Below, piece after piece: positions 4,089 to 55,270 of a stretch of 61,481 bases of DNA. A program made the position numbers and the translations under genes. Source of the stretch: a virus (taxonomy: Duplodnaviria > Caudoviricetes); IMG/VR virus record IMGVR_UViG_3300040781_000188, positions 1-61,481 of that record; one strand, given 5' to 3'. The notes beneath the pieces are model-generated. The model did no database searches. It was not told where the DNA came from and saw nothing but the letters and a program-made list of their open reading frames with translations. Within the stretch, counting starts at the first letter, position 1. Every line of letters starts with the position of its first letter.

Positions 4089-4457
4089 ATGGAGAAGAAA
4101 GAAGTCACTGTCATTAGAGAAAGAAGAAAACATAAAAGATCGAAAAAAGTAATTAAGTTTAGAATTACGCCTGAAGAGCAACAAGATATAGTTGGCGAAA
4201 CTAACGATCTTAGTTGTGTAGGTGCTAATTGTAAAATGAACAGTTATGTACCAGAGATGACAAAGTTAGAATTGACTCTTTCCCTTCCTGATGGTGAAGA
4301 ATCTTTTGAAGGTATTGTTGTGCGATGTGATAAAGTCAAAGAAGATGAATATGATACAGCTATATATTTTAGTCAAATTAGTAATGATATAAGAAAGAAA
4401 ATTAATGACTTTATTGATCCAAATTCCGAAGAACAAGAATTTAAAATTGATGGTTAA
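4089..4457 (+). CDS. PilZ domain protein 1
   Basis: RxxxR (ERRKHKR) plus DxSxxG (DLSCVG), GIVVRC. Confidence 0.85.
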   Translation: MEKKEVTVIRERRKHKRSKKVIKFRITPEEQQDIVGETNDLSCVGANCKMNSYVPEMTKLELTLSLPDGEESFEGIVVRCDKVKEDEYDTAIYFSQISNDIRKKINDFIDPNSEEQEFKIDG

Positions 4458-4483
4458 ACAACATTATCAAAGGAGTAAATGTT

Positions 4484-4963
4484 ATGGCTAAATTTCGTTT
4501 AAGAATTCTGGAGAAGTTTGATGTTTGGGCTGATGCCGCTACTGCTTTATCTAATATCACCACAGTCCCTAAGTATGTTGTCATCAAGAAACCAACCCCA
4601 AAAATTGTTGAATATTGGGTTTGTGTACCAATGGTTGGTGATCAATTTGACTATGTTCAGGATCAACTTTTCAATGTAGAGTCCGAACTTAAAGGTCAGG
4701 TCGCGGATCTTGACGCTGCTGTTGCAGATAGAGCCAATATTGTTGATGGGCTTATTCTTGAAATGTCTAATCTTGATGGAACAGTTGATGTTTATACTGA
4801 TGATGATTCGTATGAAAATAATATGGGAACTGATGGTGCTCATCGGGCAACTGAAGGATGGACTCCTGCTAATCAAATCAAACCTTCTGGTCAAGCATTT
4901 AATGATTCCCAGTTGGGTGTTGAAGGTGCCGATTCTAAAGGGTTTGGTAATACTTTAAATTAA
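4484..4963 (+). CDS. Hypothetical protein
   Basis: 159-aa ORF with strong SD AAGGAG. Confidence 0.7.
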   Translation: MAKFRLRILEKFDVWADAATALSNITTVPKYVVIKKPTPKIVEYWVCVPMVGDQFDYVQDQLFNVESELKGQVADLDAAVADRANIVDGLILEMSNLDGTVDVYTDDDSYENNMGTDGAHRATEGWTPANQIKPSGQAFNDSQLGVEGADSKGFGNTLN

Positions 4964-4978
4964 TTGTTTGTTGGAGAT

Positions 4979-5004
4979 TTCCCCCTGTGATTAAGCAGGG
5001 GGAA
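4979..5004 (+). promoter_or_regulatory. Hairpin covering the RBS of the next gene (or weak terminator)
   Basis: TTCCCCCTG / CAGGGGGAA inverted repeat, no U-tract, ending just before ATG 5014. Confidence 0.5.
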
Positions 5005-5013
5005 TACCATAAT

Positions 5014-5226
5014 ATGATAGAAAAGAAGAAATATGTTGGACCAGATAGAAGAGATAGTCTGGTCGATCGACGCCATTATGGATTATATGGTAAATATTTA
5101 CAATGGTTATTTAGAAAGAAAAAAAGATTTTATATATTGATTTGGTTGTCTGGTATTGGTTGGGCGTATATATTTATTGAAATCGGAATTTGGTTAGAAA
5201 GACATGGGATAACCCGCGCATGGTAA
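5014..5226 (+). CDS. Small membrane protein with DRR repeat (YVGPDRRDSLVDRR)
   Basis: DRR motifs followed by one hydrophobic helix; start moved to ATG 5014. Confidence 0.65.
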   Translation: MIEKKKYVGPDRRDSLVDRRHYGLYGKYLQWLFRKKKRFYILIWLSGIGWAYIFIEIGIWLERHGITRAW

Positions 5227-5522
5227 CCGACAATAGACAATTCTTAAGATTAAATAAGTCCGTTGATTTATTAATAAATGATTCTGTACCTGGATGGACT
5301 AATAATCTAAGTTTAGGTGGAATATCCGCTTTTATTAAAAATGATGTGCCATTATTTAAAGAGTTAAGTCTATCCTTAAAATTACCTAGTGGAAATGCTG
5401 TTCTTATAGGTCAATGTTTACGTTTAAGCAAACTAGAAGATGAACTTTATAATGTTGCTATAAGTTTTGAAAATTTACCAAAACGTGTAAGATCTGCGAT
5501 GATAGACTTTATTAATTCCTGA
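5220..5522 (+). CDS. PilZ domain protein 2
   Basis: RQFLR plus NLSLGG; ATG 5220. Confidence 0.8.
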   Translation: MVTDNRQFLRLNKSVDLLINDSVPGWTNNLSLGGISAFIKNDVPLFKELSLSLKLPSGNAVLIGQCLRLSKLEDELYNVAISFENLPKRVRSAMIDFINS

Positions 5523-5534
5523 TAAGTGATTGCT

Positions 5535-5876
5535 ATGAACTCACATTTAGGTAACAGACAATATGAACGAGCTACACATCCTGTTCGATTATCTATAAAT
5601 AAACATATATTAGGATCAACTTTAAATATTAGTATTGGTGGAGCATTTGCTATTGTTAATAAAGAAGTACCAGAGATGGATGAACTTGATATTATTTTAG
5701 AATTACCAGATGGAGACTTTGAAGTTAAAGGTACATGTTTAAGGTCTTCTAGTATGGGAGAAGCTTCGTATCATATCGCTTTATTATTTCAAATAGAGAC
5801 TGAAAATGAAGATAATATATTAAGATTAGCTCGATTTATTAATTGCCAGGAGATGCGTTGCCGGGAGATGCGATAA
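5535..5876 (+). CDS. PilZ domain protein 3
   Basis: RQYER plus NISIGG; ATG 5535. Confidence 0.85.
   Translation: MNSHLGNRQYERATHPVRLSINKHILGSTLNISIGGAFAIVNKEVPEMDELDIILELPDGDFEVKGTCLRSSSMGEASYHIALLFQIETENEDNILRLARFINCQEMRCREMR
5843..5872 (+). repeat. 15-bp tandem duplication
   Basis: TTGCCAGGAGATGCG TTGCCGGGAGATGCG, 1 mismatch. Confidence 0.85.
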
Positions 5877-6112
5877 TGATTTCATTACTCGAGAAAAAAG
5901 TTATTAAAGTAGAAAACACTCCTAATTGGCAAGTACATGATTTCAAGAATCCACCGAATAAGGATATTGCAAAAGATTCTAGAGGGAAACCAATATTTCG
6001 TCGATTCCATCCAAAAGGACGACCAGACCGTTTAATAACCGTCGCGATTAAAAAGAATCCAGGCCCTGCAGGAGGGAAGACGGAAGTCACTTCTGTTTGG
6101 AAGAAAAAATAA
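5876..6112 (+). CDS. Small basic protein with N-terminal tag (MISLLE), putative internal head protein
   Basis: TAATG coupling to the previous gene; shares VENTP...KD..G.PI with 9804..10283. Confidence 0.7.
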   Translation: MISLLEKKVIKVENTPNWQVHDFKNPPNKDIAKDSRGKPIFRRFHPKGRPDRLITVAIKKNPGPAGGKTEVTSVWKKK

Positions 6113-6125
6113 ATAGGAGTAATGG

Positions 6126-6443
6126 ATGATTGACGACAGAAGATTTTATTCTAGAGGAATTATTGAACTAGATATTGCTGTTGGTCCTAGAGCCAAAGGT
6201 AAAACTGTTAATATATCTTTAGGTGGTATTCTTTGTAGGCTTGATACATTTATTCAATCTGATGTTTGTATGGATATTATAATTACTAAGAACGGAGATA
6301 CGATTGAAATGAGAGGGTACTGTAATCGTATCGAGAAAATAAAGAAAAGAGATTATTTAGCATCCATCGAATTTAGTAAAGATTGTATTAGTCCATTTAA
6401 TAAGAATAGACTCAAATTAGCTGAATATTTAAGAGGATATTAA
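6126..6443 (+). CDS. PilZ domain protein 4
   Basis: RFYSR plus NISLGG. Confidence 0.85.
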   Translation: MIDDRRFYSRGIIELDIAVGPRAKGKTVNISLGGILCRLDTFIQSDVCMDIIITKNGDTIEMRGYCNRIEKIKKRDYLASIEFSKDCISPFNKNRLKLAEYLRGY

Positions 6444-6445
6444 AT

Positions 6446-7159
6446 ATGATATCTGTGACTAGAATATATGAAACTTTAGAATTAATGGAACTCGAAGATT
6501 ATATCGAGAATTTAACTGTTGCTTGTTGTGAAACATATCAAGATGAATTTGTTGACGCTGCGGTAAAATATTTAGAAGAAGATGATCATTCTATTTTAGA
6601 TGTTTATTTTGAAAGTCATTCCGAAGTATTAAACGAGCTTAAAGTTAATATTTCAAAAGAGGATGTGGAAGCTGCTAAAAAACATGTTAAAGAAAAATTA
6701 AAAGAATCTGCTAAACAACCAGTTAAGAAATCTCTTATTAGAAAATTAACTAGTAAAATGTATAAGAATAGAGTTGGGCGTGCTATTGTTAAAGGTATCC
6801 GTAAAGCGGGATATGGTACTAAACTTGGTCGAAAAGTTATGGGTAAATATGCGGATGTAAAACAAGCTATGGCTAAAGGTCATAGTGAAATGGGTAAGAA
6901 ATTTACAAAATCAGCAGGACAGTATGGGGCTATGGCTAAAGGTCTTGAAAGAGATGTTATAGGTAATGCATTATATGGAGATACAGCTAAAAATGCAAGA
7001 GATTCTTTTGTGAAAGCTGCCGGTGCTGCAGGACAACGTGCTAGGAGTTCAATGAAAGCAGCAAATCAAACTAAACGTAATTTGAAGATGACAGGTAAAA
7101 GAGAACCAAAAGTTAAATTTTCTATGCCTAAACAAAGAGCTTTACCTCATCCCGCATAA
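6446..7159 (+). CDS. Tagged (MISVTRIYE) protein with acidic N-terminus and basic C-terminus, putative internal head protein
   Basis: Charge switch at VLNE-LKV; Lys/Ala-rich tail. Confidence 0.65.
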   Translation: MISVTRIYETLELMELEDYIENLTVACCETYQDEFVDAAVKYLEEDDHSILDVYFESHSEVLNELKVNISKEDVEAAKKHVKEKLKESAKQPVKKSLIRKLTSKMYKNRVGRAIVKGIRKAGYGTKLGRKVMGKYADVKQAMAKGHSEMGKKFTKSAGQYGAMAKGLERDVIGNALYGDTAKNARDSFVKAAGAAGQRARSSMKAANQTKRNLKMTGKREPKVKFSMPKQRALPHPA

Positions 7160-7174
7160 TCCTGGTAGGTGATA

Positions 7175-7564
7175 ATGCCAAAGAAAAGAATATATTATAA
7201 AGGTAAAAAAGTATCTAAAGGTGAAAAGAAAATAATTGATCATTTACTTAAAAGAGAAATTTCTTTTGAACAAGAGAAGACGTTTGATGATTGTAAAACT
7301 AGGAACAATAGAAAACATCTTCGGTTTGATTTCTTTTTGCCGACATTTAAAGTTCTTATTGAATTTGATGGCGAACATCATTATGGTCCTGTTAATAAAC
7401 ATGCTCGTGCTAAATACGTCCATGAACGTACAGTAATAAATGATCAAATAAAAAATAATTATGTAACAACGACAGGATACGGTTTATTACGGATACCGTA
7501 TTGGGAATATGATAAAATAGAAGAGATAATAGACGAGATGATATCAAATCTAGGAAATAAATAA
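7175..7564 (+). CDS. PD-(D/E)xK (Vsr/DUF559-like) endonuclease
   Basis: SKGEKKI, LRFDFFLP, LIEFDGEHH, LLRIPYW. Confidence 0.8.
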   Translation: MPKKRIYYKGKKVSKGEKKIIDHLLKREISFEQEKTFDDCKTRNNRKHLRFDFFLPTFKVLIEFDGEHHYGPVNKHARAKYVHERTVINDQIKNNYVTTTGYGLLRIPYWEYDKIEEIIDEMISNLGNK

Positions 7565-8625
7565 TGAACCCATCAAATATGGCAAGAAAAATTTTAATAT
7601 TAGATGATGAACAATCTATTGTTGATATTATATCTAAATATTTAATTAGGGTTGGTTATCAACCAATAGGGTTTATTAATGTTGAAAAAGCGTTAGAAAA
7701 ATTCGAACGAACAGAAGATATTTTTCTAGTGTTAACAGATATAGACATGCCAGATATTGACGGTATAACTGTACTTAAATCAATAAAATCGATAAGAATG
7801 GATGTGCAAGTAATTATTGTTTCTGGTGCAGGATCGTCGAATCAAATTGTTGAAGCTTTAAGATACGGGGCTTGTGATTATTTAATGAAGCCAGTTAATT
7901 TTGAATTACTTAATCATTCTATATCTAAATGCTTTGAACGATTTGATTATATTAAACATCGAGATGAATATGAAAAAAATCTCGAGGAACAAGTTAAAAG
8001 ACAAACAGAAAGTATATATTCCTTATTTAATGAATCAATTAAATCGTTGTCTAAAATAACAGCGTTACGAGATCCTTATACTGCTGGTCATCAAAAACGA
8101 GTAACCGATTTAGCTTTAGCTATTAGTCAGGAAATGAATTTAAGTGAAGATATCTGTCAAAGTATTAAAATAGCCGGTTTACTCCATGATGTTGGTAAGA
8201 TTTGTGTTCCAACAGAAATCCTTGTTAAACCTGCAAGATTGACAAAAAAAGAAATAGGATTAATGCAAGAGCATGTCACTGCTAGTTATAATATTGTAAA
8301 GAATATTCCTTTTCAAGATGTATTAAATCATGATGTTGCCGAAATAATACTACAACATCATGAACGTCTTGATGGATCAGGTTATCCTAGAAATCTTAAA
8401 GAAAATGAAATATATTTAGAAACAAAAATACTTTCTGTTTGTGATGTTATAGAATCTATGTCATTACATCGTCCTTATCGTCCCGCCTTAGGATTAAAAA
8501 AGACATTGGATGAAATAAGGAGAGGTTGTGGAACAGTTTATGATAATGATGTTTGTCAGACTGCTATAGCAATATTGGAACCTTATGGAGATAGTTTAAT
8601 GAACTATTTTAAGGGTGAATCATGA
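7564..8625 (+). CDS. Response regulator with HD-GYP cyclic-dinucleotide phosphodiesterase domain (RpfG-like)
   Basis: REC (ILDDE, LTDIDMP, KP) plus RDPYTAGHQKRV, LLHDVGK, HHERLDGSGYP, HRPYR. Confidence 0.95.
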   Translation: MNPSNMARKILILDDEQSIVDIISKYLIRVGYQPIGFINVEKALEKFERTEDIFLVLTDIDMPDIDGITVLKSIKSIRMDVQVIIVSGAGSSNQIVEALRYGACDYLMKPVNFELLNHSISKCFERFDYIKHRDEYEKNLEEQVKRQTESIYSLFNESIKSLSKITALRDPYTAGHQKRVTDLALAISQEMNLSEDICQSIKIAGLLHDVGKICVPTEILVKPARLTKKEIGLMQEHVTASYNIVKNIPFQDVLNHDVAEIILQHHERLDGSGYPRNLKENEIYLETKILSVCDVIESMSLHRPYRPALGLKKTLDEIRRGCGTVYDNDVCQTAIAILEPYGDSLMNYFKGES

Positions 8626-8858
8626 TTTCTCTAGTTGAGTATGAAGTGTTGCAATTCACAAAAAGAGCATATACTGATAAATATCCTGCTATATCGTTAC
8701 CACCAAACATTTCAGATAGAGCAGTCAAAGGAATGGCTTCTCATTTATTGAATATAATAAAACTTCGAGAAAAGAATAACAAACCTTCTGAAGTAGATGA
8801 TAGTCAGGATAAATTTGACGGAACAAATTCAAATTATGATGAAAAGACAAGTATTTAA
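8622..8858 (+). CDS. Small tagged protein (MISLVE)
   Basis: ATGA overlap with the HD-GYP stop. Confidence 0.65.
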   Translation: MISLVEYEVLQFTKRAYTDKYPAISLPPNISDRAVKGMASHLLNIIKLREKNNKPSEVDDSQDKFDGTNSNYDEKTSI

Positions 8859-8909
8859 TTAAAGAATATAATAATTGCCATAGTAGTGTATATGGTGTGG
8901 AGAAGACTA

Positions 8910-9266
8910 ATGAGATCAAAAATTATTTTTGGTTGTTTATTAATCTTTATTTCCTTTATTATTATGGGTGTAGGATTTTCTAAAGGAGATAATGTAACTC
9001 ATTATTCGAACTTCATAACAAAACAAATAAATCAATGTGCGGAACGTAGTCAAAATTTTTGTACTGCAGAAATGCCGAAGATAAAGAGAGAATCTGCAAT
9101 TGATTGTTTAAAGGCTTCTTATTTTTCTTTCCATAGAAAACAATTAATAGACATGATGGTTGAGTATAATATTGGAGTAGAAGAACACCAAATGAGCGTG
9201 TTCTTAAACGGAACGTTCTTTGAAATCCTTAGAACAGCGATTGAAGACTATGATACCAATACATAA
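8910..9266 (+). CDS. Secreted or membrane-anchored hypothetical protein
   Basis: N-terminal hydrophobic segment MRSKIIFGCLLIFISFIIMGVG. Confidence 0.65.
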   Translation: MRSKIIFGCLLIFISFIIMGVGFSKGDNVTHYSNFITKQINQCAERSQNFCTAEMPKIKRESAIDCLKASYFSFHRKQLIDMMVEYNIGVEEHQMSVFLNGTFFEILRTAIEDYDTNT

Positions 9267-9804
9267 TCTTTTTGAACGAAAGTTCATAAGTGGTCCAGAT
9301 TATCAATATAATATGGATGCTTGGAATAATAATAAAACTAATATATTATTAGTGTTAGGTTTGAGTGGTAGTGGTAAGACGACAGATGGCATTTTATTAT
9401 CAAAGAAATATAATGTTGGTTATATCTCTTTGGATGAACTGTTTTATAACCCGATACATGATAAATTTAAAGAAAAAACAGGTCGTTATGCGGCGACAAT
9501 TGAAGAGATGTTAGATATAACTAAAAAGATTAATGTTGGTTTTAAAAAGATGTTACCTACTTTGAAAAAACGGTTTGTTATAGAAGGACTATGGCCGTTA
9601 TTTATGGATCCGAAAGAACTAAAAAATTATTCTATAATAATCAAAGGAACATCTAATTTAAAGTCATCATATCAAGTAAAATCAAGGTCTGATCATCTTA
9701 ATTTGAAAAAATCAGTAGAACGATTTTTATGGACCGCTAATTTTAATAGGCACGTTGATACTCGTATTAAAATGTTTATTCGATATTTTGAAGGATTGAA
9801 ATAA
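9250..9804 (+). CDS. Tagged (MIPIHNLFE) P-loop nucleotide kinase-like protein
   Basis: Walker A GLSGSGKTT, ISLDEL, FVIEG; start moved to ATG 9250. Confidence 0.75.
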   Translation: MIPIHNLFERKFISGPDYQYNMDAWNNNKTNILLVLGLSGSGKTTDGILLSKKYNVGYISLDELFYNPIHDKFKEKTGRYAATIEEMLDITKKINVGFKKMLPTLKKRFVIEGLWPLFMDPKELKNYSIIIKGTSNLKSSYQVKSRSDHLNLKKSVERFLWTANFNRHVDTRIKMFIRYFEGLK

Positions 9805-10283
9805 TGATATCTGTATGTAACTATATAACTCCTATATTTGAAGATAAGAAACCTGATCTTAAAGAGGGCGAATACGCTGTAAGAAAGCGTAAACCTAAAA
9901 AGGTTCTAGATTTCAATCCACGAACTAATCGTATGAAGAAATTTAAACGTACTCAATGGTTTGTTACTAAAATCGCTCCTAAAGATCGTACTGTAGAGAA
10001 CACACCTAAAGATGCTAAAGGGTTTCCCATATGCACACATCAAACATGGCTTATGATTAAAGGAGAACGCAGAACTCCCAACAGCTCTGTTGATAGTTTT
10101 GGTAAATCAGAAGCTAATGGTAGATGGTATGGATGGTCACATAGGGCCATTGCTTCTTTTGGAATTGGTGATGTAGTTAAACCTACTACTTCTGGATTTG
10201 AAAGATTGAAAGAACCATTTACTATTAATTCTGAAGAAAAAGCTAGAGAAGTTGCAAAGAGATTTGCGGAATCTGTTAGCTAG
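9804..10283 (+). CDS. Tagged hypothetical protein (MISVCNYITPIFE)
   Basis: TAATG coupling; WYGWSHRA...FAESVS conserved-looking C-terminal domain. Confidence 0.7.
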   Translation: MISVCNYITPIFEDKKPDLKEGEYAVRKRKPKKVLDFNPRTNRMKKFKRTQWFVTKIAPKDRTVENTPKDAKGFPICTHQTWLMIKGERRTPNSSVDSFGKSEANGRWYGWSHRAIASFGIGDVVKPTTSGFERLKEPFTINSEEKAREVAKRFAESVS

Positions 10284-10292
10284 GAGACTCTT

Positions 10293-10487
10293 ATGTTATC
10301 AATTTTTCAATTATTCGAAATACAACCTAATATGCAAAAAGTGTCAAAAGCGTATTTGGATAAAATCAAGACATTACCTAAAAGTATTAAAAGAGATAAA
10401 CTTTCAAAAGGTTGGATGTTAGCTTTACAAAGACAAAATAAAAGGCCTTCTAGAAAACTTTTGAATTTAGATAATAGTATGTATTAA
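10293..10487 (+). CDS. Small basic tagged protein (MLSIFQLFE)
   Basis: SD AGGAG; tag motif. Confidence 0.7.
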   Translation: MLSIFQLFEIQPNMQKVSKAYLDKIKTLPKSIKRDKLSKGWMLALQRQNKRPSRKLLNLDNSMY

Positions 10488-10509
10488 TATTAAAAGAACC
10501 GATGAAATC

Positions 10510-10716
10510 ATGGAACGTAATCCTAATGTTTTAGAAATGGATAGACGATCAGGAGTTGATAGACGCCAATTTTATAGTGTTGTATATTTTGCGAAAGGCG
10601 GACTAGAGCGAAGATCTGAAATTCCAAGAAGAAAAATTAAATTTGAACGACGACAAAATATCCGTCGAAAATTGAAGGATCGAAGAATTGTTACAAATAT
10701 CATAAAACAAGAGTAG
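10510..10716 (+). CDS. Arg-rich DRR/ERR-repeat peptide
   Basis: DRRSGVDRR, ERRSEIPRR, ERRQNIRR, DRR in 68 aa. Confidence 0.75.
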   Translation: MERNPNVLEMDRRSGVDRRQFYSVVYFAKGGLERRSEIPRRKIKFERRQNIRRKLKDRRIVTNIIKQE

Positions 10717-10725
10717 TGAGTAATT

Positions 10726-11034
10726 ATGATAGATACAAGAAAATATGGAAGAGAACTTAGAAACATACCTATTCGTATAGGTGACATTGAATGTGAAACA
10801 TTTAATCTTAGTCTTGGTGGAGCTAAATGTTATTGTGACAATCCTGTTCTTACTTTAAGAGAATTACCTATATGTTTAACATTACCTGATGGGATTCTAA
10901 ATTTTAAAGGTGTTGTTTTACGCTGTGAAGAAACTATTAAAGATCGATTTGAATTAGGGATATTTTTTAAAAATATATCAATGACGGATGACGATAGAAA
11001 TAAATTAGGTTCTTATTTGGGTTATATTTTTTAA
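10726..11034 (+). CDS. PilZ domain protein 5
   Basis: RKYGR plus NLSLGG, GVVLRC, LGIFF. Confidence 0.85.
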   Translation: MIDTRKYGRELRNIPIRIGDIECETFNLSLGGAKCYCDNPVLTLRELPICLTLPDGILNFKGVVLRCEETIKDRFELGIFFKNISMTDDDRNKLGSYLGYIF

Positions 11035-11053
11035 TTAATAAGGAGCATTTATT

Positions 11054-11272
11054 ATGATTGCAATGTATGAAATGTGGCCATTTAGCAAAAAACAAGATGT
11101 TCCACATCCTGATGAAGGAAAAGAAGCATTAGCTAATAAGGCTGGTGGAACAGATGTGAGCGCATTTAATATGGCAAATCGGCTTAGAAAATTACGTGCT
11201 GCAAAAGAAGATATGTTATCTCAAGCTGGTAATATTGGAAGGAAAGCGGTTACGGTAGCTCAAGGAGATTAA
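11054..11272 (+). CDS. Small tagged protein (MIAMYE)
   Basis: SD AAGGAG. Confidence 0.7.
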   Translation: MIAMYEMWPFSKKQDVPHPDEGKEALANKAGGTDVSAFNMANRLRKLRAAKEDMLSQAGNIGRKAVTVAQGD

Positions 11273-11274
11273 GT

Positions 11275-11520
11275 ATGCTATCTATACTTGAAATGACGGT
11301 AAACTTACATCCAGATGTTAAGAAGTATGCAAAAAATACAACACAACTAAATAAAGGTATATCTAAAGATTTAGCAGATATGGTTGGTGGTGGATCTAAA
11401 GTAGCTCATGATTATTACAAAGGGTTACAGAGGAACCTAAGAAGAAAAGTAGCAAAAATGCAAATTGATAAATTTAAAATGTCAAGAAAAAATCTAGGCG
11501 GACCACAATTAGCTGTTTAG
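11275..11520 (+). CDS. Small basic tagged protein (MLSILE)
   Basis: SD AAGGAG; tag motif. Confidence 0.7.
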   Translation: MLSILEMTVNLHPDVKKYAKNTTQLNKGISKDLADMVGGGSKVAHDYYKGLQRNLRRKVAKMQIDKFKMSRKNLGGPQLAV

Positions 11521-11529
11521 GAATTAAGT

Positions 11530-12954
11530 ATGCAAATACATAACTATTACTCAGATCTGTGTTTATCTGTTCGTACATTATTTGATAATTATATTTTTAA
11601 ACCAACTACTATTCGGTCCTATGATTTTAACATTGCGAACAGGACATTCTCTATTGATAAAGAGTTTAAAACACAGTATGAGTTGCCTGCGTGCATTGTG
11701 ACTTTAAATGATGATCATTATATCTTTGGAGAACGTCCCAATGTTATTCAGCACTTTGGACCGGAAAATCAAATGCAGCATAAGGCTCTTATAAATTTTG
11801 AAACTAATGCTGCCATCACGGTTCAAGAAGAACATGTACAAACTAATATTTCTGTTATGATAAATTGTGAAACACAATTACAAGCTAAAGAACTCGAATT
11901 CACAATCAAACGATATTTGCCTTTGAGTAAATATATTCAAATTCTAGAGTTTACTTCCTTTCTAGAAGTCTCATATGAACATCTGAGAACCCTTGACTAT
12001 GAAAATTATGGCCATAAAATAGCTAACTTATTTACGAAATTAAACGAAAATAAGGGCCAAGTAGAGTATTGTTACTCAATGAGATATCGTCCACATATTC
12101 GTCTAGAAAGTATTTCTTCGAATATAGCCGATTCAAGTCAAAGGGCTTTTTCAGTAAATGCAGAAATTAGTTATTTGACTCAAATGCCGATGTTTACATG
12201 TATTGATAATATACCACAATCTATCGAGGCTATTAATGTTATATACAGTCGGCTTGGTAATGACCCAATATCAGATTATCCTGTACAGAAAGTATTAAAT
12301 ATATTTAAAGAGATTAATTTAGAAGAAAAATTAGGGTCACCTATTCCTAAACCAGTCACAGAAAATGGTAAATGGATCATTGATCCTGATACACAAGTTC
12401 TAAGTTGGGTCGATAGATATACCGGTAATATTTTTGAAGTTGCCTCAAAACCAAATGATGGATATTGGGGGTTGGATGGAAATCAGGTGATTTGGATTAG
12501 AGACTCCGATGGGGAAAAATTCTATTTAGATTCTGAGAAAGAAAGTATTCGAAGGGGATCAATATATGGTCCTGTTTTCCTCAAAATTGGCGATGTTAAT
12601 AAACTCTTTTCAAAGCCGAAGACGTTCATTCGACGTACATATTTAATTTATGATGAAACAGATGTTGGTGCAATGTATACGGATAAGAAGGTTACGTTTT
12701 GTGTAAAATTCGATAAGAATGATTTTGTTATTCATAAACAATATAGATATAATTTTGTTGATAGATATGGTGAAATAATTAGAGATTATCCGTATTTATC
12801 TTGTGATCAAGAAGAAAACAAAGTGTGTTTTTCTGTTGAGGTAAGTGATTGGAAATTTAGGTGGAAACCATCTCTAACCTCTCCGTTAATGATACAATTT
12901 ATAGAACCTTCTCCGACAGGTCTAAAATGTTCAGACTTAGTCACAGGAGGATAA
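11530..12954 (+). CDS. Hypothetical protein, probably structural (neck/tail)
   Basis: 474-aa ORF in structural context; function not recognised. Confidence 0.6.
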   Translation: MQIHNYYSDLCLSVRTLFDNYIFKPTTIRSYDFNIANRTFSIDKEFKTQYELPACIVTLNDDHYIFGERPNVIQHFGPENQMQHKALINFETNAAITVQEEHVQTNISVMINCETQLQAKELEFTIKRYLPLSKYIQILEFTSFLEVSYEHLRTLDYENYGHKIANLFTKLNENKGQVEYCYSMRYRPHIRLESISSNIADSSQRAFSVNAEISYLTQMPMFTCIDNIPQSIEAINVIYSRLGNDPISDYPVQKVLNIFKEINLEEKLGSPIPKPVTENGKWIIDPDTQVLSWVDRYTGNIFEVASKPNDGYWGLDGNQVIWIRDSDGEKFYLDSEKESIRRGSIYGPVFLKIGDVNKLFSKPKTFIRRTYLIYDETDVGAMYTDKKVTFCVKFDKNDFVIHKQYRYNFVDRYGEIIRDYPYLSCDQEENKVCFSVEVSDWKFRWKPSLTSPLMIQFIEPSPTGLKCSDLVTGG

Positions 12955-12964
12955 AGGATTACCT

Positions 12965-13189
12965 ATGTTACCAGTATCACATTTATTAACGGAAGAAATA
13001 CCAGCTAGCGCAATTCGTAATGCTTTTAAACAGGCTGCAGTATGGGGTCTAGGTGGAGCAGTTGCTGCCAAAGTAGGTCAGGAAAAAAAGAAGTCTTTAA
13101 CTAAAGAAGAGAAAAAAGCAAGGTGGAAAGATTTGTTAACACAAACTGGTATTGGAGCAGCAGCCGGCGCAGCTGGATCATTGATTTGA
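12965..13189 (+). CDS. Small tagged glycine-zipper protein (MLPVSHLLTEE)
   Basis: GLGGAVAA and GIGAAAGAAG segments. Confidence 0.7.
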   Translation: MLPVSHLLTEEIPASAIRNAFKQAAVWGLGGAVAAKVGQEKKKSLTKEEKKARWKDLLTQTGIGAAAGAAGSLI

Positions 13190-13230
13190 AATATTATTAA
13201 ACTGTTAACGAAAATCATAAGGAGTAGAAG

Positions 13231-13401
13231 ATGAATGCTTTTGAATTATCGGGTATTTCTGCTGGACTTGGTGCTTTAGGTATGGTTAAAAAATTGCGGA
13301 GAGTTGATGAAGGTAAAGAAATCGCTGCATTAAAGAACACGAAAAAAGAACAAAAGGGCGAAACTCCGAAACCTAAATCGGAAGTTGTTAAGAGTTGTTA
13401 A
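13231..13401 (+). CDS. 56-aa protein MNAFELSGISAGLGALGMVKKLRR (missing from ORF track)
   Basis: SD AAGGAG, ATG 13231, TAA 13399-13401; paralog of the next gene. Confidence 0.8.
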   Translation: MNAFELSGISAGLGALGMVKKLRRVDEGKEIAALKNTKKEQKGETPKPKSEVVKSC

Positions 13402-13432
13402 TTTTTTTCCTTTAATTTATGAGGAGAGTGTT

Positions 13433-13630
13433 ATGCAGTTAACTGAAATGGAATACGTAGGGATATCTGCTGGCCTTGGAGCAATGGCGACGACAAAAAG
13501 AATTCGTCGATTGCAAGAAGGAGAAGTTAGAGTTCCGAAAAATCTTATTGATAAAGATCAAGAGATTAAAGTTGGCGAGGTTAACAAGTATTTTGACTCT
13601 ATGAAAACAGAAGTAGCAGACGAGGGCTAA
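13433..13630 (+). CDS. Small protein with GISAGLGA..KRIRR motif
   Basis: SD GAGGAG before ATG 13433. Confidence 0.75.
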   Translation: MQLTEMEYVGISAGLGAMATTKRIRRLQEGEVRVPKNLIDKDQEIKVGEVNKYFDSMKTEVADEG

Positions 13631-13631
13631 T

Positions 13632-14348
13632 ATGTCGAAAGCTTACAGAGATCTTATTATTAGAGAATCGATCGATGATAGCTTCTTTTATCTCGGGGAA
13701 CCAATGACAGAAATTATTAAAATTCCAGATGTCGATAATCAGGGTGAAGAATTCATTATTGAAATTGCAGAAGATGTTGGTGATGTAGTTCTTCCTTTTA
13801 TCGAATCTAATTTGGAAAAATTTGGCCTAGAATATAACGATGTTATTGGTGAAGATGATTTGTTTGATATTATTTCTGATGTGGTTCTTTCTGAACTTAA
13901 AGCTCCAAGCAAAAAAGCTATTAATAGATATGGTACCCGTGGAGCTACTAAACTCATGAAAGCATCTGCTAAAGCAGGAACTTTAGCTAGATCTGCGCGT
14001 ACTATGGGTACTTTATCTGGTAAGATGAGTTCTTTTGGTGATAGACGAATTGCAGCTGCAAAAGAGCTTTCTAGTAGTGGTAAAGATTGGGCAGGTGCTG
14101 GTGGTGCGGTTGGATATGGTAAAGCTGCTTGGAGAGGAACAAAAGCCGCTGCTCATGCTGGTGCTGGACTAGCTGCTAAGATTGGTGCAGGAATGGCCAC
14201 AGCAAGACAAGGATATTTGCGGGGCGCAGCTAGAAGAACAATGGCTTCAGGATTTGGGGCTGCTACACAACAGAAACGATATCAAGATTTAAGAGATAAA
14301 GAAGCTGCACAAAGAGCAGAACGACTCCGACAAGCCGGTATGGGTTAA
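13632..14348 (+). CDS. Protein with acidic N-terminus and Ala/Gly/Lys-rich C-terminus, putative internal head protein
   Basis: Charge switch at VLSE-LKA. Confidence 0.7.
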   Translation: MSKAYRDLIIRESIDDSFFYLGEPMTEIIKIPDVDNQGEEFIIEIAEDVGDVVLPFIESNLEKFGLEYNDVIGEDDLFDIISDVVLSELKAPSKKAINRYGTRGATKLMKASAKAGTLARSARTMGTLSGKMSSFGDRRIAAAKELSSSGKDWAGAGGAVGYGKAAWRGTKAAAHAGAGLAAKIGAGMATARQGYLRGAARRTMASGFGAATQQKRYQDLRDKEAAQRAERLRQAGMG

Positions 14349-14358
14349 GGAGATACTC

Positions 14359-14994: not shown

Positions 14995-15021
14995 ACTATT
15001 AATCTTTTGGAGGATTTAAAA

Positions 15022-15573: not shown

Positions 15574-15613
15574 TCTTATTTTTATAATAAACGATTAAAA
15601 TTTAAATCGGAGG

Positions 15614-16224: not shown

Positions 16225-16256
16225 TTTAACTTTATTTTATTTTTGGAGGATTTACA

Positions 16257-16568: not shown

Positions 16569-16604
16569 TCCAATGGATGTCATATGTCCATGGAGGTATA
16601 CGTT

Positions 16605-16787: not shown

Positions 16788-16802
16788 TAGAGAGGGATTA
16801 TT

Positions 16803-17015: not shown

Positions 17016-17023
17016 ATACTGAT

Positions 17024-17074: not shown

Positions 17075-17109
17075 TTACTACTTTGATTTGTTTCTTATAT
17101 ACCCATAGA

Positions 17110-19726: not shown

Positions 19727-19759
19727 TCGAACTTCTCCTTTCTTAGGTGGTACATAATT

Positions 19760-20113: not shown

Positions 20114-20114
20114 T

Positions 20115-48631: not shown

Positions 48632-48817
48632 ATGTTATCTATATCTAGATTATTTGAAGAAATATCATCATTTCCGCTTTCAAGGAAACTACAGAAAACC
48701 GCATCTAAATTATATATGCGTGGTACCCCAGAATATAACACTATTGCTCAAAGAATTGCGGAAAAGGCTAAAACAGTTTCTCCAAAATATCAAGCAATGA
48801 AAAGGAAGCTTTCGTAA
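48632..48817 (+). CDS. Small basic tagged protein (MLSISRLFEE)
   Basis: SD GAGGG; tag motif. Confidence 0.7.
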   Translation: MLSISRLFEEISSFPLSRKLQKTASKLYMRGTPEYNTIAQRIAEKAKTVSPKYQAMKRKLS

Positions 48818-49176
48818 TGCTATACACATACAAAGCCAAATATTTATCTAATTATGATGGGGACACTATCGACTTCTTAGTTGATTTAGGTTTTGGTATT
48901 TCTTATAAAATAAGAGTAAGGTTATTAGGGGTTAATACTCTAGAAATAAGATCTAAGATTGAAGAAGAAAGAGTTAAGGCAAGATTAGCAAGAGATGTTG
49001 TAAAAATTGAATTGTCTAATGCTGAAGAAATTATAATCAAAACAAAAAAAGATAAGACCGGCAAATATGGTCGATATTTGGCCGATATATTATATAAGCG
49101 CGATAAAATGGCAGAGATGCCAACTAGTTTGGCTCAATTACTTTTAGAACGAGAATTAGCTGTTCCGTATGAATAA
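48817..49176 (+). CDS. Thermonuclease (SNase-like)
   Basis: YDGDTI, VRLLGVNTLE, GKYGRYLA. Confidence 0.9.
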   Translation: MLYTYKAKYLSNYDGDTIDFLVDLGFGISYKIRVRLLGVNTLEIRSKIEEERVKARLARDVVKIELSNAEEIIIKTKKDKTGKYGRYLADILYKRDKMAEMPTSLAQLLLERELAVPYE

Positions 49177-49537
49177 AGAAAGACTTGCTATGATAACTGT
49201 CGAAAGAAGAAAACACAATAGAATTAAAACACCTAAAATTTCATTTGCTGCTATTACCGGTAAAGAACTTTCTATGATAGTAAATAAGAAAGTTGTATTT
49301 GGTAGAGTGTACGATATAGATCCTGATGGGTTATGTGTAACATCTGATACGTTATTACCCGAGGGTAAAAATATTGAATTAATATTAAGACTATTTAAAA
49401 AAGATGTGAAATTTAATGGTAATATTATTCGAGCTAATAAAGAACACGACACTACATTTCTGGCGTTTCTATTTAATTGGAAAAATACACCAGAACAGAG
49501 TAAAGAATTTCTTCAAAAATTCTTAGAGACTATATGA
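49169..49537 (+). CDS. PilZ domain protein 7
   Basis: ERRKHNR plus variant DIDPDG, GNIIR. Confidence 0.75.
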   Translation: MNKERLAMITVERRKHNRIKTPKISFAAITGKELSMIVNKKVVFGRVYDIDPDGLCVTSDTLLPEGKNIELILRLFKKDVKFNGNIIRANKEHDTTFLAFLFNWKNTPEQSKEFLQKFLETI

Positions 49538-50824: not shown

Positions 50825-50844
50825 AAAAGACGGGTTACGTCTTT
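50822..50844 (-). terminator. Terminator between convergent genes
   Basis: AAAGACG GGTTA CGTCTTT with A-tract on the left. Confidence 0.55.
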
Positions 50845-51065
50845 CCTCCATAAACGGGGCATTCGCCTTCGTCATATGGGTTCATCTCTACGGCCTCGCG
50901 AATAATGTACTCCGCAACGCTTTCGAGGGCTATGCGGATACTACTCACTGGAATCTCTTCCAGGTTCTTCTCCGCATAGGTTAAGGTTACTGGGAAAGCT
51001 ATTCCCAGTACTCGGACGAGCTCATAAAGCTCATCCTGCCCCAGGCCTTCCAGCTGTTTGATCAT
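50835..51065 (-). CDS. Small hypothetical protein (MIKQLEGLG...); minus strand, ORF-track label is wrong
   Basis: Reverse complement reads AAGGAGGCCCAT ATG ATC AAA CAG. Confidence 0.75.
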   Translation of the reverse strand: MIKQLEGLGQDELYELVRVLGIAFPVTLTYAEKNLEEIPVSSIRIALESVAEYIIREAVEMNPYDEGECPVYGGKT

Positions 51066-51110
51066 ATGGGCCTCCTTTGTTGTGGTTTGAGGTGCATTCG
51101 CCTTCGTCAT
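50859..51110. repeat. 17-bp direct repeat pair
   Basis: GCATTCGCCTTCGTCAT at 50859-50875 and 51094-51110. Confidence 0.9.
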
Positions 51111-51273: not shown

Positions 51274-51654
51274 TTACCTTGCTAGAGCAAGGCATCCGAC
51301 GATACTACCGTCGGACTTACGAACCATCCTTGCAACGGTCAACAGATCGGTTCTACCCGTCTGTCGAGCAGCGTTGGCAGTGATAGCTGAGACGATGTAG
51401 AATACACCTTTTTCAGGTGCAGGGAGATTTTCAACCTCCCCATATTCCAACCCAATAGTTGGAATATTTTCTATCGCCTCTGCATCTACCTCGACTACTG
51501 AGCAACGTGGAACGTTGCCCGAGGTTGCAGGGATCTCGCAAACGACGACAGGGTCGCCCACGAGGTTATAACTCCGAGTACGTTTGTTGTACTCGGCACA
51601 CACTGGCGACAGAATTGTCACCGCATGTGGCGTCATATTGATGACGCTGGTCAT
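51274..51654 (-). CDS. Conserved phage hypothetical protein (NxTPH...LPAP...YIVS...RxDL...G.IVGC family); minus strand, ORF-track label is wrong
   Basis: Reverse complement reads AAGGAGAAAGGGTT ATG ACC AGC GTC. Confidence 0.8.
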   Translation of the reverse strand: MTSVINMTPHAVTILSPVCAEYNKRTRSYNLVGDPVVVCEIPATSGNVPRCSVVEVDAEAIENIPTIGLEYGEVENLPAPEKGVFYIVSAITANAARQTGRTDLLTVARMVRKSDGSIVGCLALAR

Positions 51655-52729: not shown

Positions 52730-52739
52730 GGATAAAAGT

Positions 52740-53243
52740 ATGGCAAAATTTCGTCATTTTGAGGAAAGTAGAATCCAACTTGGTGTTGGGGAAGTACACA
52801 TTCAAGAAGTAAGTGATGGTGTACATCTTACTATTAGCGAAGAAATAGAACACAGTATTCGATTAGGTATTCCAAATGAACATGGAACTACTTATAATTA
52901 TTGGCGCGATATTGTTAATATATTAAAAGATGATGAAGACTCAATTAAATTAGCTTCTGCTATAGTTGAATTAGAAGACTCTGATCTAAATCAAGAAGAA
53001 TTGCCTAAACCATTAAGACCAGAATTTGTTAATTTCTCTGATAATAATATTGATTGGATTGGAATAAAATTATTGACTTCGAATGGAGATCCTATTCTTG
53101 TCTGTTGGGAAAAAGGATCAGGCATTCCTATACCAACTATTTCATTTAATTTAGATTGGATAAAGAAAGCGACTAAAATTGGACAGTCTGTATTTTATCA
53201 AGAACTCGCCAAAGTTTGTTCGAAAGTGTTAGACGAAGTATGA
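52740..53243 (+). CDS. Hypothetical protein
   Basis: 167-aa ORF, SD AAGGA. Confidence 0.7.
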   Translation: MAKFRHFEESRIQLGVGEVHIQEVSDGVHLTISEEIEHSIRLGIPNEHGTTYNYWRDIVNILKDDEDSIKLASAIVELEDSDLNQEELPKPLRPEFVNFSDNNIDWIGIKLLTSNGDPILVCWEKGSGIPIPTISFNLDWIKKATKIGQSVFYQELAKVCSKVLDEV

Positions 53244-53407
53244 AAACTAAAATTATAAATCAATGTGATCTAAAACATTTAGAGCAATTGATTACTTGTC
53301 CATATTATGAATGGAGATTATCTCCATTTAAATGTAATTGGAAATCATTATCTGATGAATGCTTGAATAAAAAAGCACAAGAATATTGGCTTAATAAAAG
53401 GGACTGA
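53240..53407 (+). CDS. Small four-Cys protein
   Basis: ATGA overlap at 53240. Confidence 0.55.
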   Translation: MKTKIINQCDLKHLEQLITCPYYEWRLSPFKCNWKSLSDECLNKKAQEYWLNKRD

Positions 53408-53409
53408 TT

Positions 53410-54072
53410 ATGATACCTATTTCATATTTATTTGAAGTAAGTAGATTAAAAAAAGAAATCAGATTAGGGAAACTGTCTGATGAAGGTATAATGAAAGCTC
53501 GAATGGCAGGACAAATCAAGCCTTTTCATAAATGGAGAAAAGGTATCGATAAAGGGACTAATGAACTTATTCGAAAATCAGGAGCAAAGAAATTAGTTTC
53601 TTCTGATTCATTTGGTGTTCATAAAGACAGAATTTATTCAAATGTACCACAGATGATGACAAGAGATGGAGAGAGACTTGTTGTTCTTCCAAAAACGTCC
53701 TCATCATTTTATAAAGACAAAAATCTTAGTCCTCGTGATGCTACTATTATAAATAGACATGAAGCGGACGAATCTCGGTATGGTAAAGAATATAAAAATA
53801 AATTTGGAGTTAATTTAGCAGGGAGATTTTCAAAACGGGAAGGGACAGGAGAGAAACATGTTTCTGCAAGAGTTACAAAGAGGGAATCAGAAAATCTCAA
53901 TACTGGAAAAGCATATGGACTAGGGTCTTTCCTCAGGTCTCATCGTGAAAAAACTGGAGAATCTAATTTAGTAAAGAAATCAGATAAAGAACTCAAAAAA
54001 ATTGAGAGTAGAAGAATTAAAGATTTTTTGAAGAAAAGTAATCAAATCTCTCCTGAACTGAATTTATATTAA
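53410..54072 (+). CDS. Tagged basic protein (MIPISYLFE)
   Basis: Tag identical to that of the next gene; contains RHEADE. Confidence 0.75.
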   Translation: MIPISYLFEVSRLKKEIRLGKLSDEGIMKARMAGQIKPFHKWRKGIDKGTNELIRKSGAKKLVSSDSFGVHKDRIYSNVPQMMTRDGERLVVLPKTSSSFYKDKNLSPRDATIINRHEADESRYGKEYKNKFGVNLAGRFSKREGTGEKHVSARVTKRESENLNTGKAYGLGSFLRSHREKTGESNLVKKSDKELKKIESRRIKDFLKKSNQISPELNLY

Positions 54073-54083
54073 AGGATTGTAAA

Positions 54084-54497
54084 ATGATACCTATTTCATA
54101 TTTATTCGAACAACCACAAGAATTACCTCCAGAAGAACAGGGTAATCTTGCTGATCGTATTTATGTTAGAGCGTTAGAAAGAGTACCTACTCCCGAACAA
54201 GATGAAGAAGCAGCAATTAGTGATGAAGCTGCTGCAAAAATAGAACAAGAAAAACAGGCAGCGAAAGTTGCTGCAGCTACTGCAGAAATGCGGAATAGAG
54301 ATCCAGAATTAAAACAATTAAAAGCCGCAGAAGCTATTCATAATAAACAAGCTGCTGAAGATGTTAAATCACTAGAACAGGGCGCAGTTCCTCCTAATGT
54401 AGAGCAAGATAAGGCCGAACAAGCCGCTGCTATGCAAGGCCCGCCCGAGGGTAATTCCCAAGGGCAAGTCCAAGAGAATTTATTTCAATATATTTAA
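54084..54497 (+). CDS. Tagged acidic Gln/Glu/Ala-rich protein (MIPISYLFE)
   Basis: SD AAGGA; tag motif. Confidence 0.75.
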   Translation: MIPISYLFEQPQELPPEEQGNLADRIYVRALERVPTPEQDEEAAISDEAAAKIEQEKQAAKVAAATAEMRNRDPELKQLKAAEAIHNKQAAEDVKSLEQGAVPPNVEQDKAEQAAAMQGPPEGNSQGQVQENLFQYI

Positions 54498-54511
54498 GGA
54501 GTCTCGAAGAC

Positions 54512-55270
54512 ATGAGTAATAATTTGGTTATTGATCCTATAATTCATAATTTACCAGTTGCTATATTAGTTGTTGATAAAGAGCGAAAAGTAATGTTGTC
54601 TAATAAAGCTGCTGAGTTCCTTGCAAATAAATCAGAGTCACAATTATTTGATTTATATGGCGGACAAGCTTTAGGCTGTATTCATGCAGATTCTGAAGAA
54701 GGTTGTGGATTTACAGAACATTGTGATGCTTGTGATGTTAAAAATGCAGTTTTAGAAACATTCTTATCAAAGAAAGATAGAGAGTCGTTTGATACAAAAA
54801 TTAATTTAAAATTATACGGGTCTAGAGATATAAAAGTATCTGCAACATATTTAAATTTAGATGAAATTAGAGATGAAATTGTTAGTGTTGAAAGAAGAAT
54901 AAGTCGTGGTAGAAGAGAGAGTGATTTGCGTAAAGAAATGGTTATAGTTGCTATGGAAGATGTGACTGAGTTTAAAAAGAAAGAACGAATGTCTGCAACA
55001 TTAGAAACTGTTGGTGCATTATGTCATGAAATGAATCAACCATTGCAAGTTCTAGAAGGATCTCTTTCTCTTATTAAACTTGATTTGGATAGTCCGAAAG
55101 ATAAAAATAAAGAAATAAATGAAAATCTTAAAATTGCATATGAAGCACAAGTTAAATTAGCTAAAATTATATCGGATCTTAAACAATTAAAAGAATACGA
55201 AACGAAACAATATTTATCTGGTCGAATATTAGATATTGAAAAATCTGCAAATAGTGGTGAATTGTCATGA
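54512..55270 (+). CDS. PAS plus HisKA-only (no ATPase domain) signalling protein
   Basis: PAS start LPVAILVVD...SNKAA, Cys cluster GCIH...GCG.TEHC..C, H-box ALCHEMNQPL; no HATPase motifs. Confidence 0.8.
   Translation: MSNNLVIDPIIHNLPVAILVVDKERKVMLSNKAAEFLANKSESQLFDLYGGQALGCIHADSEEGCGFTEHCDACDVKNAVLETFLSKKDRESFDTKINLKLYGSRDIKVSATYLNLDEIRDEIVSVERRISRGRRESDLRKEMVIVAMEDVTEFKKKERMSATLETVGALCHEMNQPLQVLEGSLSLIKLDLDSPKDKNKEINENLKIAYEAQVKLAKIISDLKQLKEYETKQYLSGRILDIEKSANSGELS

Follow-up and report, generated by a model that had tools for sequence, protein, structure and literature searches.

Can a tailed phage own a set of cyclic di-GMP (c-di-GMP) signalling proteins, and what would it do with them during infection? 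The question is raised by the IMG/VR virus record IMGVR_UViG_3300040781_000188, a linear sequence of 61,481 bp without terminal repeats that was analysed at its full length (hereafter the window), in which the original prediction, made from the letters alone, had seen seven PilZ proteins, an intact REC-HD-GYP enzyme, a FliN homologue and several two-component proteins scattered between the structural genes of a phage. These domain identities hold, their motifs are intact, a cyclase is absent, the genes and their order are conserved in related phages, and their composition and read coverage are native to the phage. The reading that we prefer, and in which we have moderate confidence, is that they form an accessory module, inherited vertically in a lineage of uncultured AT-rich jumbo tailed phages from mats and sediments, which would take over the host c-di-GMP network during infection.

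From 143 open reading frames (ORFs) of at least 60 aa we picked 86 that are not nested and scanned all of them against Pfam, where 43 families were matched; among the matches listed, PilZ is found in seven proteins, Response_reg in three, PAS and HisKA in two each, and HD_5, HATPase_c and FliMN_C in one each. The relatives used for comparison are G001, an IMG/VR record of 109,194 bp (35% GC, 41% complete), G022, a complete genome of 314,837 bp with direct terminal repeats, and the metagenome loci L145 to L152, whose copies of the tail-terminator protein are 55-60% identical to that of the window; the metagenome scan with this protein gave 78 loci. The signalling genes of the window are the following.

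4089-4457, plus strand: PilZ1, single-domain, 122 aa, beginning 11 nt past the endolysin gene (Pfam 35.1 bits; RKHKR, DLSCVG)
5190-5522, plus strand: PilZ2, likely start ATG at 5220 (Pfam 27.0 bits; motifs intact)
5526-5876, plus strand: PilZ3 (Pfam 30.2 bits; motifs intact)
6126-6443, plus strand: PilZ4, divergent (Pfam 19.9 bits, under the cut-off; RFYSR, NISLGG)
7564-8625, plus strand: REC-HD-GYP, predicted response-regulator phosphodiesterase, 353 aa (HD_5 126.4 bits, REC 77.5 bits)
10726-11034, plus strand: PilZ5 (Pfam 29.1 bits; motifs intact)
22807-23082, plus strand: FliN-like SpoA-domain protein, 91 aa (FliMN_C, PF01052, E 1e-20, 69.6 bits against a cut-off of 23.8)
23036-23443, plus strand: PilZ6, likely start 23099, between the FliN-like gene and a gp5-like hub gene (Pfam 38.9 bits; RDNNR, DVSPGG)
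25578-25949, plus strand: stand-alone receiver (REC), 5 nt upstream of the kinase (Response_reg E 1e-13; DDDD, D57, S, K)
25955-30283, plus strand: membrane hybrid histidine kinase, 1442 aa (Pfam and hydropathy)
49169-49537, plus strand: PilZ7, overlapping the upstream SNase-like gene by 8 nt (Pfam 29.2 bits; RKHNR)
54512-55270, plus strand: PAS-HisKA protein without HATPase_c, just before the terminase gene (HisKA 27.6 bits, PAS 23.2 bits; H-box CHEMNQPL)

The seven PilZ proteins are borne out by profile, motif and phmmer evidence, since six of them pass the PF07238 cut-off of 22.5 bits (27.0-38.9) and the divergent PilZ4 is a clear paralogue by phmmer (E 4e-7 to 1e-6). RxxxR together with [DN]xSxxG is the c-di-GMP-binding signature of PilZ domains, and in the window the former is present in 7/7 copies and the latter in 6/7, PilZ7 having DIDPDG at that place. 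A hidden Markov model (HMM) built from the window copies matched 9 of 81 sources, all from one subclade, with seven copies in the window and five in G001, and it matched neither the complete relative G022 nor any of 71 other loci. PilZ1 found no match at E<=0.01 among 50,697 GenBank phage records, the five PilZ copies checked and the FliN-like protein had no PHROG match, and 1 of the 29 HD-GYP-bearing IMG/VR records also carries PilZ. The protein P0125 is 85% identical to PilZ2 across 5220-5519. We also observed that, outside phages, the proteins nearest to the phage PilZ profile consist of two to four PilZ domains in tandem; P0122 and P0128 have four (412-413 aa) and many have two.

The REC-HD-GYP protein had been called intact, and both its domain scores and its catalytic motifs agree. 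The HD_5 domain (PF13487) carries the motifs LLHDVGK, QHHERLDGSGYP, GH..RV and CDV, which align to the structure 4mcw and are invariant in 15 relatives, the HD-GYP motif HHERLDGSGYP is intact, and DDE, D59, S and K are present in the receiver. The 4mcw protein is PmGH, which we take to be a c-di-GMP phosphodiesterase. Orthologues with 46-48% identity occur in G001 (47%), L145, L147 and L152, and 29 IMG/VR loci encode HD-GYP relatives; single-protein IMG/VR scans with the HD-GYP and tube proteins recovered no relative, and alignments were needed as the query. The nearest bacterial homologues share 33-41% identity over the full length and come from many phyla, with 'delta' lineages frequent. In a FastTree phylogeny of 108 REC-HD-GYPs, computed without bootstraps after 18 rows had been dropped for length and two duplicates removed, the proteins of the subclade group together with a support of 92, followed by two other viral contigs and then a metagenome-assembled genome of Desulfovibrio, and the G022 copy is placed elsewhere on a long branch. 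The grouping of the subclade proteins suggests one acquisition.

As for the two-component proteins, all three REC domains of the window (PF00072) qualify as receivers, with E-values from 1e-13 to 3e-25, and the stand-alone one has the expected residues. The kinase is complete as had been claimed, with HisKA, HATPase_c and REC in one protein of 1442 aa, whose order is a signal or transmembrane segment, a periplasmic SBP_bac_3-like domain, three transmembrane-like segments, PAS, GAF, three PAS, HisKA, HATPase_c and REC. Its HisKA scores 26.3 bits, slightly below the cut-off of 26.9, with the H-box AHDFNN, HATPase_c reaches 79.4 bits, and REC, whose phospho-acceptor D lies within LDLVMPG, reaches 78.8 bits. 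The counterpart in G001, of 1692 aa and 38% identical over 1105 aa, is likewise preceded by a REC gene. A kinase-like gene also lies inside the PilZ/HD-GYP island of L147 (~4178) and L148 (~2974), where tblastn gives 27% identity to the window kinase, so that the layout of the module varies within the subclade. The PAS-HisKA protein, confirmed by Pfam as having both domains and no ATPase domain, has no match in G001; it may serve as a phosphatase, or as a decoy without kinase activity. The profile search at E<=0.1 detected no GGDEF, EAL or Hpt domain in the window, in line with the earlier observation that no GGDEF cyclase is present, and GGDEF was found in none of ten relatives, namely G001, the complete G022 and eight others.

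The FliN homologue of the original prediction stands as a protein with a FliMN_C domain far above its cut-off, and we label it 'FliN-like' rather than FliN because it scores 73.5 bits against TIGR02480, the NCBI FliN equivalog, which is below the cut-off of 84.05, and because its best bacterial identity is 49%. It has no counterpart in G001, G022 (no sound match) or L152, which places its gene outside the conserved module, and a word-based homologue search with it returned itself only. The protein points to the flagellar switch as a possible target, in a host that has flagella. We considered Microcystis phage MaAM05 as a phage precedent for FliN and rejected it, since the match (L303, MW495066.1 106474-114719) sits among pomA, ompA, fliM, fabI and engB, and this stretch looks like bacterial chromosome, not phage; it is one of seven tblastn records matching the FliN-like protein and the only one that was inspected. 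In regard to the host, the original prediction favoured a Desulfobacterota-like bacterium. Among the four phyla searched, FliN-like matches at E<=1e-16 number 8/301 in Thermodesulfobacteriota (taken from the listed E-values of a search at E<=1e-8), 1/301 in Campylobacterota and 0/301 in both Spirochaetota and Bacillota, and the best identity of 49% is to Thermodesulfobacteriota proteins. The FliN-like and some HD-GYP matches thus lean weakly towards such a host, but the HD-GYP homologues come from many phyla at no more than 41% identity, and this is too weak to name one. The runs holding the phage are microbial-mat and sediment metagenomes.

Whether all these genes are resident in a phage or were joined to it by assembly can be judged from their neighbours and from the relatives. 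The neighbours that matter here are the following.

3454-4077, plus strand: endolysin with GH108 and PG_binding_3, context gene
9804-10283, plus strand: Tad6-like protein (anti-Thoeris family), inside the PilZ/HD-GYP island (Pfam Tad6, PF25188, 64 bits against a cut-off of 27)
11530-12954, plus strand: g11530, tail-terminator/neck-like protein, whose gene bounds the island (AlphaFold2 model and Foldseek)
23446-24513, plus strand: gp5-like baseplate hub (phrog_430, E 1.8e-15)
48817-49176, plus strand: SNase-like nuclease, paired with PilZ7 (Pfam SNase 24.2 bits against a cut-off of 21)

By tblastn, 63 of the 86 window proteins match G001 in the same order. That record has PilZ1 after the endolysin (54% identical), further PilZ genes including orthologues of PilZ3 (33%) and PilZ4 (37%), the nuclease-like g7169, REC-HD-GYP, the Tad6-like gene, PilZ5, a PilZ directly before the hub, and REC followed by the kinase. 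L145, L147, L148, L150/L151 and L152 all have the island (PilZ, REC-HD-GYP, Tad6-like, PilZ) upstream of their tail-terminator gene, as does L146 without HD-GYP; within L145-L152 every locus that reaches upstream carries it, and more distant relatives are without it. Orthologues of PilZ5 stand upstream of g11530 in G001, L145, L148 and L152, a PilZ adjoins the hub gene also in G001 and L152, and homologues of the SNase-like gene lie beside a PilZ in G001 and L145. The Tad6-like orthologues are 41-79% identical in G001 (70%), L145-L148 and L152, and the match to the Tad6 profile covers positions 54-145 only, the N-terminal 83 residues being different. As a separate observation, Tad6-like proteins with 35-41% identity are found in the more distant, PilZ-lacking relatives L173, L174 and L181. 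Overall the signalling genes are syntenic in related phage contigs at 30-54% protein identity. The complete G022, whose terminase is 57% identical and which has 30 of the 86 proteins in common, encodes two or three REC proteins and keeps an HD-GYP gene adjoining the tail-terminator gene, and it has no PilZ and no GGDEF. Proteins 72-85% identical to the HD-GYP and PilZ2-4 of the window are found in public data and imply that a closer sister phage exists.

The composition and the reads agree with this synteny. The AT-rich composition that the signalling genes were said to share with the phage is reflected in GC z-scores between -1.42 and +0.42 standard deviations around a gene mean of 0.340. In run X1, which may be the source sample of the record, the depth is 12.8-15.5 in 30/30 bins and flat across 20 kb, and it is flat in run X2 too. 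A 16,012-nt contig from X1 spans 5778-21789 with six differences, bridging PilZ3 through the tail-terminator gene, and in two runs of another study pieces 95-99% identical cover the PilZ and HD-GYP genes. One could suppose that host DNA was mis-joined to a phage, or that a bacterial contig was miscalled as viral, given that the signalling domains are typically bacterial, that the record is a fragment without terminal repeats, and that some GenBank 'phage' records with such genes, MaAM05 for example, look bacterial. We find this hardly credible, because the same interleaving is seen in several independently assembled contigs from other samples, most of the window is collinear with G001, phage hallmark genes stand on both sides, the GC is uniform, the depth is flat and the bridging contig runs as far as 21789. 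The chimeric assembly that the original prediction had named as grounds for refutation is thus contradicted. That the signalling genes are resident phage genes is well supported, and on this point synteny, composition, depth and the related phages all side with the original prediction.

What the module does is something that we infer from the proteins themselves, and this applies to every biochemical step below and to the phenotype. The phage would insert its own hybrid kinase in the host membrane, with solute-binding-like sensing in the periplasm and PAS/GAF sensing in the cytoplasm, and this kinase would pass phosphate to the single REC encoded beside it, to the receiver of the HD-GYP enzyme or to both. 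The activated HD-GYP would then hydrolyse c-di-GMP, and five to seven small PilZ proteins would soak up what is left of it, or would act as phage-owned effectors that link its level to partners encoded next to them (endolysin, SNase-like nuclease, hub). In this phage only, the FliN-like protein may target the flagellar switch and the kinase-dead PAS-HisKA protein may interfere with a kinase or a response regulator. The net effect is expected to be a lower level of the messenger, because the phage encodes a degrading enzyme and receptors and no cyclase, and the likely pay-off would be a motile, non-matrix virocell low in c-di-GMP, which would disperse, lose its pili or exopolysaccharide receptors and exclude superinfection. 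A REC-HD-GYP with a cognate-looking kinase is the architecture of RpfG-type housekeeping c-di-GMP signalling, and c-di-GMP sets the choice between swimming and biofilm as well as the surface structures that serve as phage receptors. With the motifs intact, it is reasonable to suppose, as did the original prediction, that these proteins drain or sequester cyclic dinucleotides and rewire motility, or that they blunt immunity. A weak hint of adaptor roles comes from the neighbours that stay fixed beside PilZ1 (endolysin), PilZ6 (hub) and the SNase-linked PilZ.

Several observations weigh against a takeover of the host network. A Tad6-like anti-defence gene shares the island, and Tad6 is reported to bind the Thoeris sensor ThsB (PMC13728456). 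The HD-GYP protein matches 4mcw (HD-GYP metal-dependent phosphohydrolase) with E 1.3e-26 and the 3'3'-cyclic GMP-AMP (cGAMP)-specific phosphodiesterase 5z7c with E 4.4e-26. The second PilZ motif is missing in PilZ7 of the window and in 2/5 copies of G001, no Hpt is found in the window (~22% of the genome in hand), though a hybrid kinase normally requires one to pass its signal to a response regulator, and the relatives do not share the FliN-like and PAS-HisKA genes. Finally, divergence between the window and G001 is faster in the signalling genes than in the others, with a median identity of 36.6% against 55.1% (Mann-Whitney p=0.0007), and both this divergence and the Tad6-like gene in the island fit an arms-race role.

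The main rival, by reason of that Tad6-like gene, is a cyclic-nucleotide anti-defence island, in which HD-GYP would destroy the cyclic di- or oligonucleotides of immunity (those of cyclic-oligonucleotide-based anti-phage signalling systems, CBASS, and of type III CRISPR) and PilZ would act as sponges, alongside a Tad6-like inhibitor of Thoeris. We think this rather unlikely, even though the Tad6-like gene is conserved together with the island, the HD-GYP is equally near the cGAMP-specific 5z7c and 4mcw, the signalling genes evolve faster than the others and their copy number and order differ among relatives. It could also be said in its favour that small nucleotide binders in several copies recall the logic of sponges (PMC13728456) and that Iyer et al. 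2021 predicted an action of jumbo-phage HD-GYPs against SMODS and CRISPR nucleotides (PMC7824862). Known anti-defence phosphodiesterases and sponges, however, are small and unregulated, and here the enzyme bears a receiver and is accompanied by a sensor kinase of 1442-1692 aa and a REC next to the hub gene, while PilZ genes occur outside the island as well, beside the hub and SNase-like genes. Moreover, the PilZ motifs are the c-di-GMP signature, and we know of no PilZ that binds immune nucleotides, which we count against an anti-defence role. Host takeover is favoured over a constitutive anti-defence nuclease because the enzyme carries a receiver domain and the phage retains a large sensor kinase whose periplasmic domain is of a ligand-binding kind, and the two roles could coexist.

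The phage may instead read c-di-GMP rather than set it, the PilZ proteins being sensors that tune lysis timing, degradation of host DNA and tail assembly to the biofilm or motile state, with the kinase and HD-GYP setting the gain. The positions of the PilZ genes would fit such a role, since PilZ1 follows the endolysin in all four loci that cover the junction (window, G001, L146, L147), PilZ6 lies ahead of the hub in the window, G001 and L152, and a PilZ follows the SNase-like gene in the window, G001 and L145. We nonetheless consider it improbable, because in a phage genome, densely packed as it is, adjacency alone says little, PilZ was nowhere seen fused to such a partner, and the gene order of the island is shuffled among relatives. 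Our preference thus stays with the takeover of the host c-di-GMP network.

The rest of the window identifies its owner as a tailed jumbo phage, with a large terminase, tail and neck proteins and a lysis gene, and with an inferred size above 200 kb. CheckV gives a completeness of 22%, so that 61 kb point to a genome near 280 kb, and together with the 314,837 bp of G022 the size for the lineage is estimated at ~280-315 kb. The GC content ranges from 29 to 41% along the window, 79 of the 86 chosen ORFs are on the plus strand, and ARAGORN found zero tRNA in the window. Further features are these.

Start 2771: C92 amidase
4987-5226, plus strand: 79-aa peptide with DRRDSLVDRR and a C-terminal hydrophobic stretch (sequence)
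10510-10716, plus strand: 68-aa Arg-rich peptide with repeated DRR/ERR (sequence)
44787-45596, plus strand: tail tube/virion structural protein (phrog_21400, phrog_45)
55236-55778 and 56110-57411, plus strand: large terminase in two ORFs (phrog_5989, E 7e-20; Terminase_6N)

Our AlphaFold2 model of g11530, from 27 sequences and with a pLDDT of 71, matched in Foldseek the phiKZ neck chain 9xps_w (E 3e-6), T4 gp15 (4huh/4hud) and the T5 p142 tail terminator. The terminase shares ~25% identity (tblastn) with annotated jumbo myovirus terminases. Its two ORFs are ~330 nt apart in the window, the same split occurs in G001 with a gap of ~50 nt, and G022 has two adjacent pieces; it could be a true split gene, an intron or a programmed frameshift. 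The signalling genes had been described as dispersed through the virion gene region, and this stands as far as endolysin, tail-terminator-like, hub, tube and terminase genes are their neighbours, but recombinase-, nuclease- and peptidase-like genes and many unknowns are also there. These non-virion neighbours include a radical-SAM protein, UvsX/RecA-like pieces, a Cas4-like nuclease family, an M48 peptidase and an HNH-like and ATPase pair on the minus strand, and most of the remaining genes are without a family match. None of the window proteins could be named as capsid, portal or sheath. The candidate g43458 was rejected as tail sheath, its AlphaFold2 model (3 sequences, pLDDT 68.5) being all-helical and without a Foldseek match at E<=0.001, and PDB profile searches with g43458, g32173, g11530 and g40518 gave no meaningful match. 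The coupling of stops and starts noted earlier is real in the ORF coordinates, with overlaps of 1-8 nt (5874-5876/5876, 7564, 8622-8625, 30277-30283, 49169-49176) and gaps of 2-5 nt (5522/5526, 6443/6446, 23443/23446, 25949/25955). Both DRR/ERR peptides are likewise present as Arg-rich ORFs, and they match no Pfam or NCBIfam family and nothing in G001.

Some further observations concern other parts of the genome. A RecA/UvsX/KaiC-like recombinase lies in two pieces, a 126-aa Walker-A piece (34495-34875) and a 337-aa piece (34935-35948), both of which are kept in G001 (78% and 69%) and in G022. The sole long minus-strand block, at 16580-19771, contains the HNH-like phrog_1314 gene and the ATPase phrog_1297 gene, and we rejected it as a mobile island because most of the 78 related metagenome loci keep it in the same arrangement with g16257, g19685 and g20164. 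Two small minus-strand ORFs (50838-51110 and 51277-51654) have 51% GC against the gene mean of 34%, no Pfam match and no G001 counterpart, and may be a recent insertion. Finally, many ORFs open with a shared N-terminal leader, M-[LI]-[SP]-[ILV]-x-x-[LYF]-[LFIY]-(E), found in its strict form at window starts 9250, 9804, 10293, 12965, 21767, 30277, 33985, 34240, 48632, 49545, 50291, 53410 and 54084, and as looser variants at 5876, 6446, 8622, 11275, 13385 and 21918. The window has 13 strict leaders where shuffling gives a mean of 0.1, G001 has 9 where it gives 0.3, and G022 has 2 where it gives 0.7. Since the codons differ among copies and the upstream DNA shares only the ribosome-binding site, the signal acts at the peptide level, and the leader can be likened to capsid-targeting or prohead-protease propeptides (the capsid-targeting sequence of T4; phiKZ cleavage after Glu). 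It is present on the Tad6-like protein and on none of the PilZ, HD-GYP, REC, kinase and FliN-like proteins.

A bolder proposal, which is possible and which we advance tentatively, is that of a complete, self-contained viral pathway, in which an environment-sensing kinase feeds a receiver-gated c-di-GMP phosphodiesterase and a radiating PilZ family serves as sponges or as adaptors steering phage enzymes and, here, the host flagellar switch. If this bolder proposal is correct, the infected cell would sense its surroundings and shift its motility, matrix, receptors and lysis on the virus's terms; the PilZ proteins would be the first such family in viruses, and the takeover of a second messenger would be of a class new to viruses. 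A conserved viral sensor kinase together with a regulated phosphodiesterase and several PilZ proteins would show that viruses can import a whole circuit and evolve their own effector family. The proteins lend themselves to testing (seven small PilZ and one enzyme of 353 aa), and they bear on sequestration and degradation of c-di-GMP as a viral strategy for dispersal, superinfection exclusion and immune evasion in mats and sediments. No report of a phage-encoded PilZ was found in the literature searched, which takes in few subscription journals, and supplementary gene-content tables of jumbo phages could still list one; hybrid kinases and response regulators already have PHROG families.

Compared with the bacterial RpfG-type REC-HD-GYPs, with PmGH (4mcw), PA4781 (4r8z) and V-cGAP3 (5z7c), the enzyme has the same architecture and catalytic motifs, but it is virus-encoded, and in the tree the phage copies are grouped by themselves. 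The PilZ proteins share signature and motifs with single-domain PilZ receptors and with the flagellar brake YcgR, and one copy here adjoins the FliN-like gene; unlike YcgR, they are without a YcgR-N/PilZN domain and form a family of five to seven paralogues on a phage. An HD-GYP enzyme on a jumbo phage is already in print (Iyer, Anantharaman, Krishnan, Burroughs & Aravind 2021, PMC7824862), and what differs here is the N-terminal receiver, the phage sensor kinase, the single REC and the PilZ family, PilZ being unmentioned in the available part of that paper. The anti-defence proteins Tad1, Tad2, Acb1, Acb2 and Acb4 (PMC13728456) are similar in that small nucleotide binders and a degrading enzyme are clustered with another anti-defence gene, whereas the module of the window belongs to another fold family, its predicted ligand is c-di-GMP and its enzyme would be under two-component control. 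Also comparable are the phage proteins Zip and PlzR, which bind host PilZ (PMC13434031, PMC11461919), and the phage YfiN-binding peptides (PMC8085984), all of which are reported to act on the c-di-GMP/PilZ axis, partly for superinfection exclusion. Those, however, are small inhibitors of a host PilZ or a host cyclase, whereas the phage described here encodes a PilZ family, a predicted phosphodiesterase and a kinase of its own.

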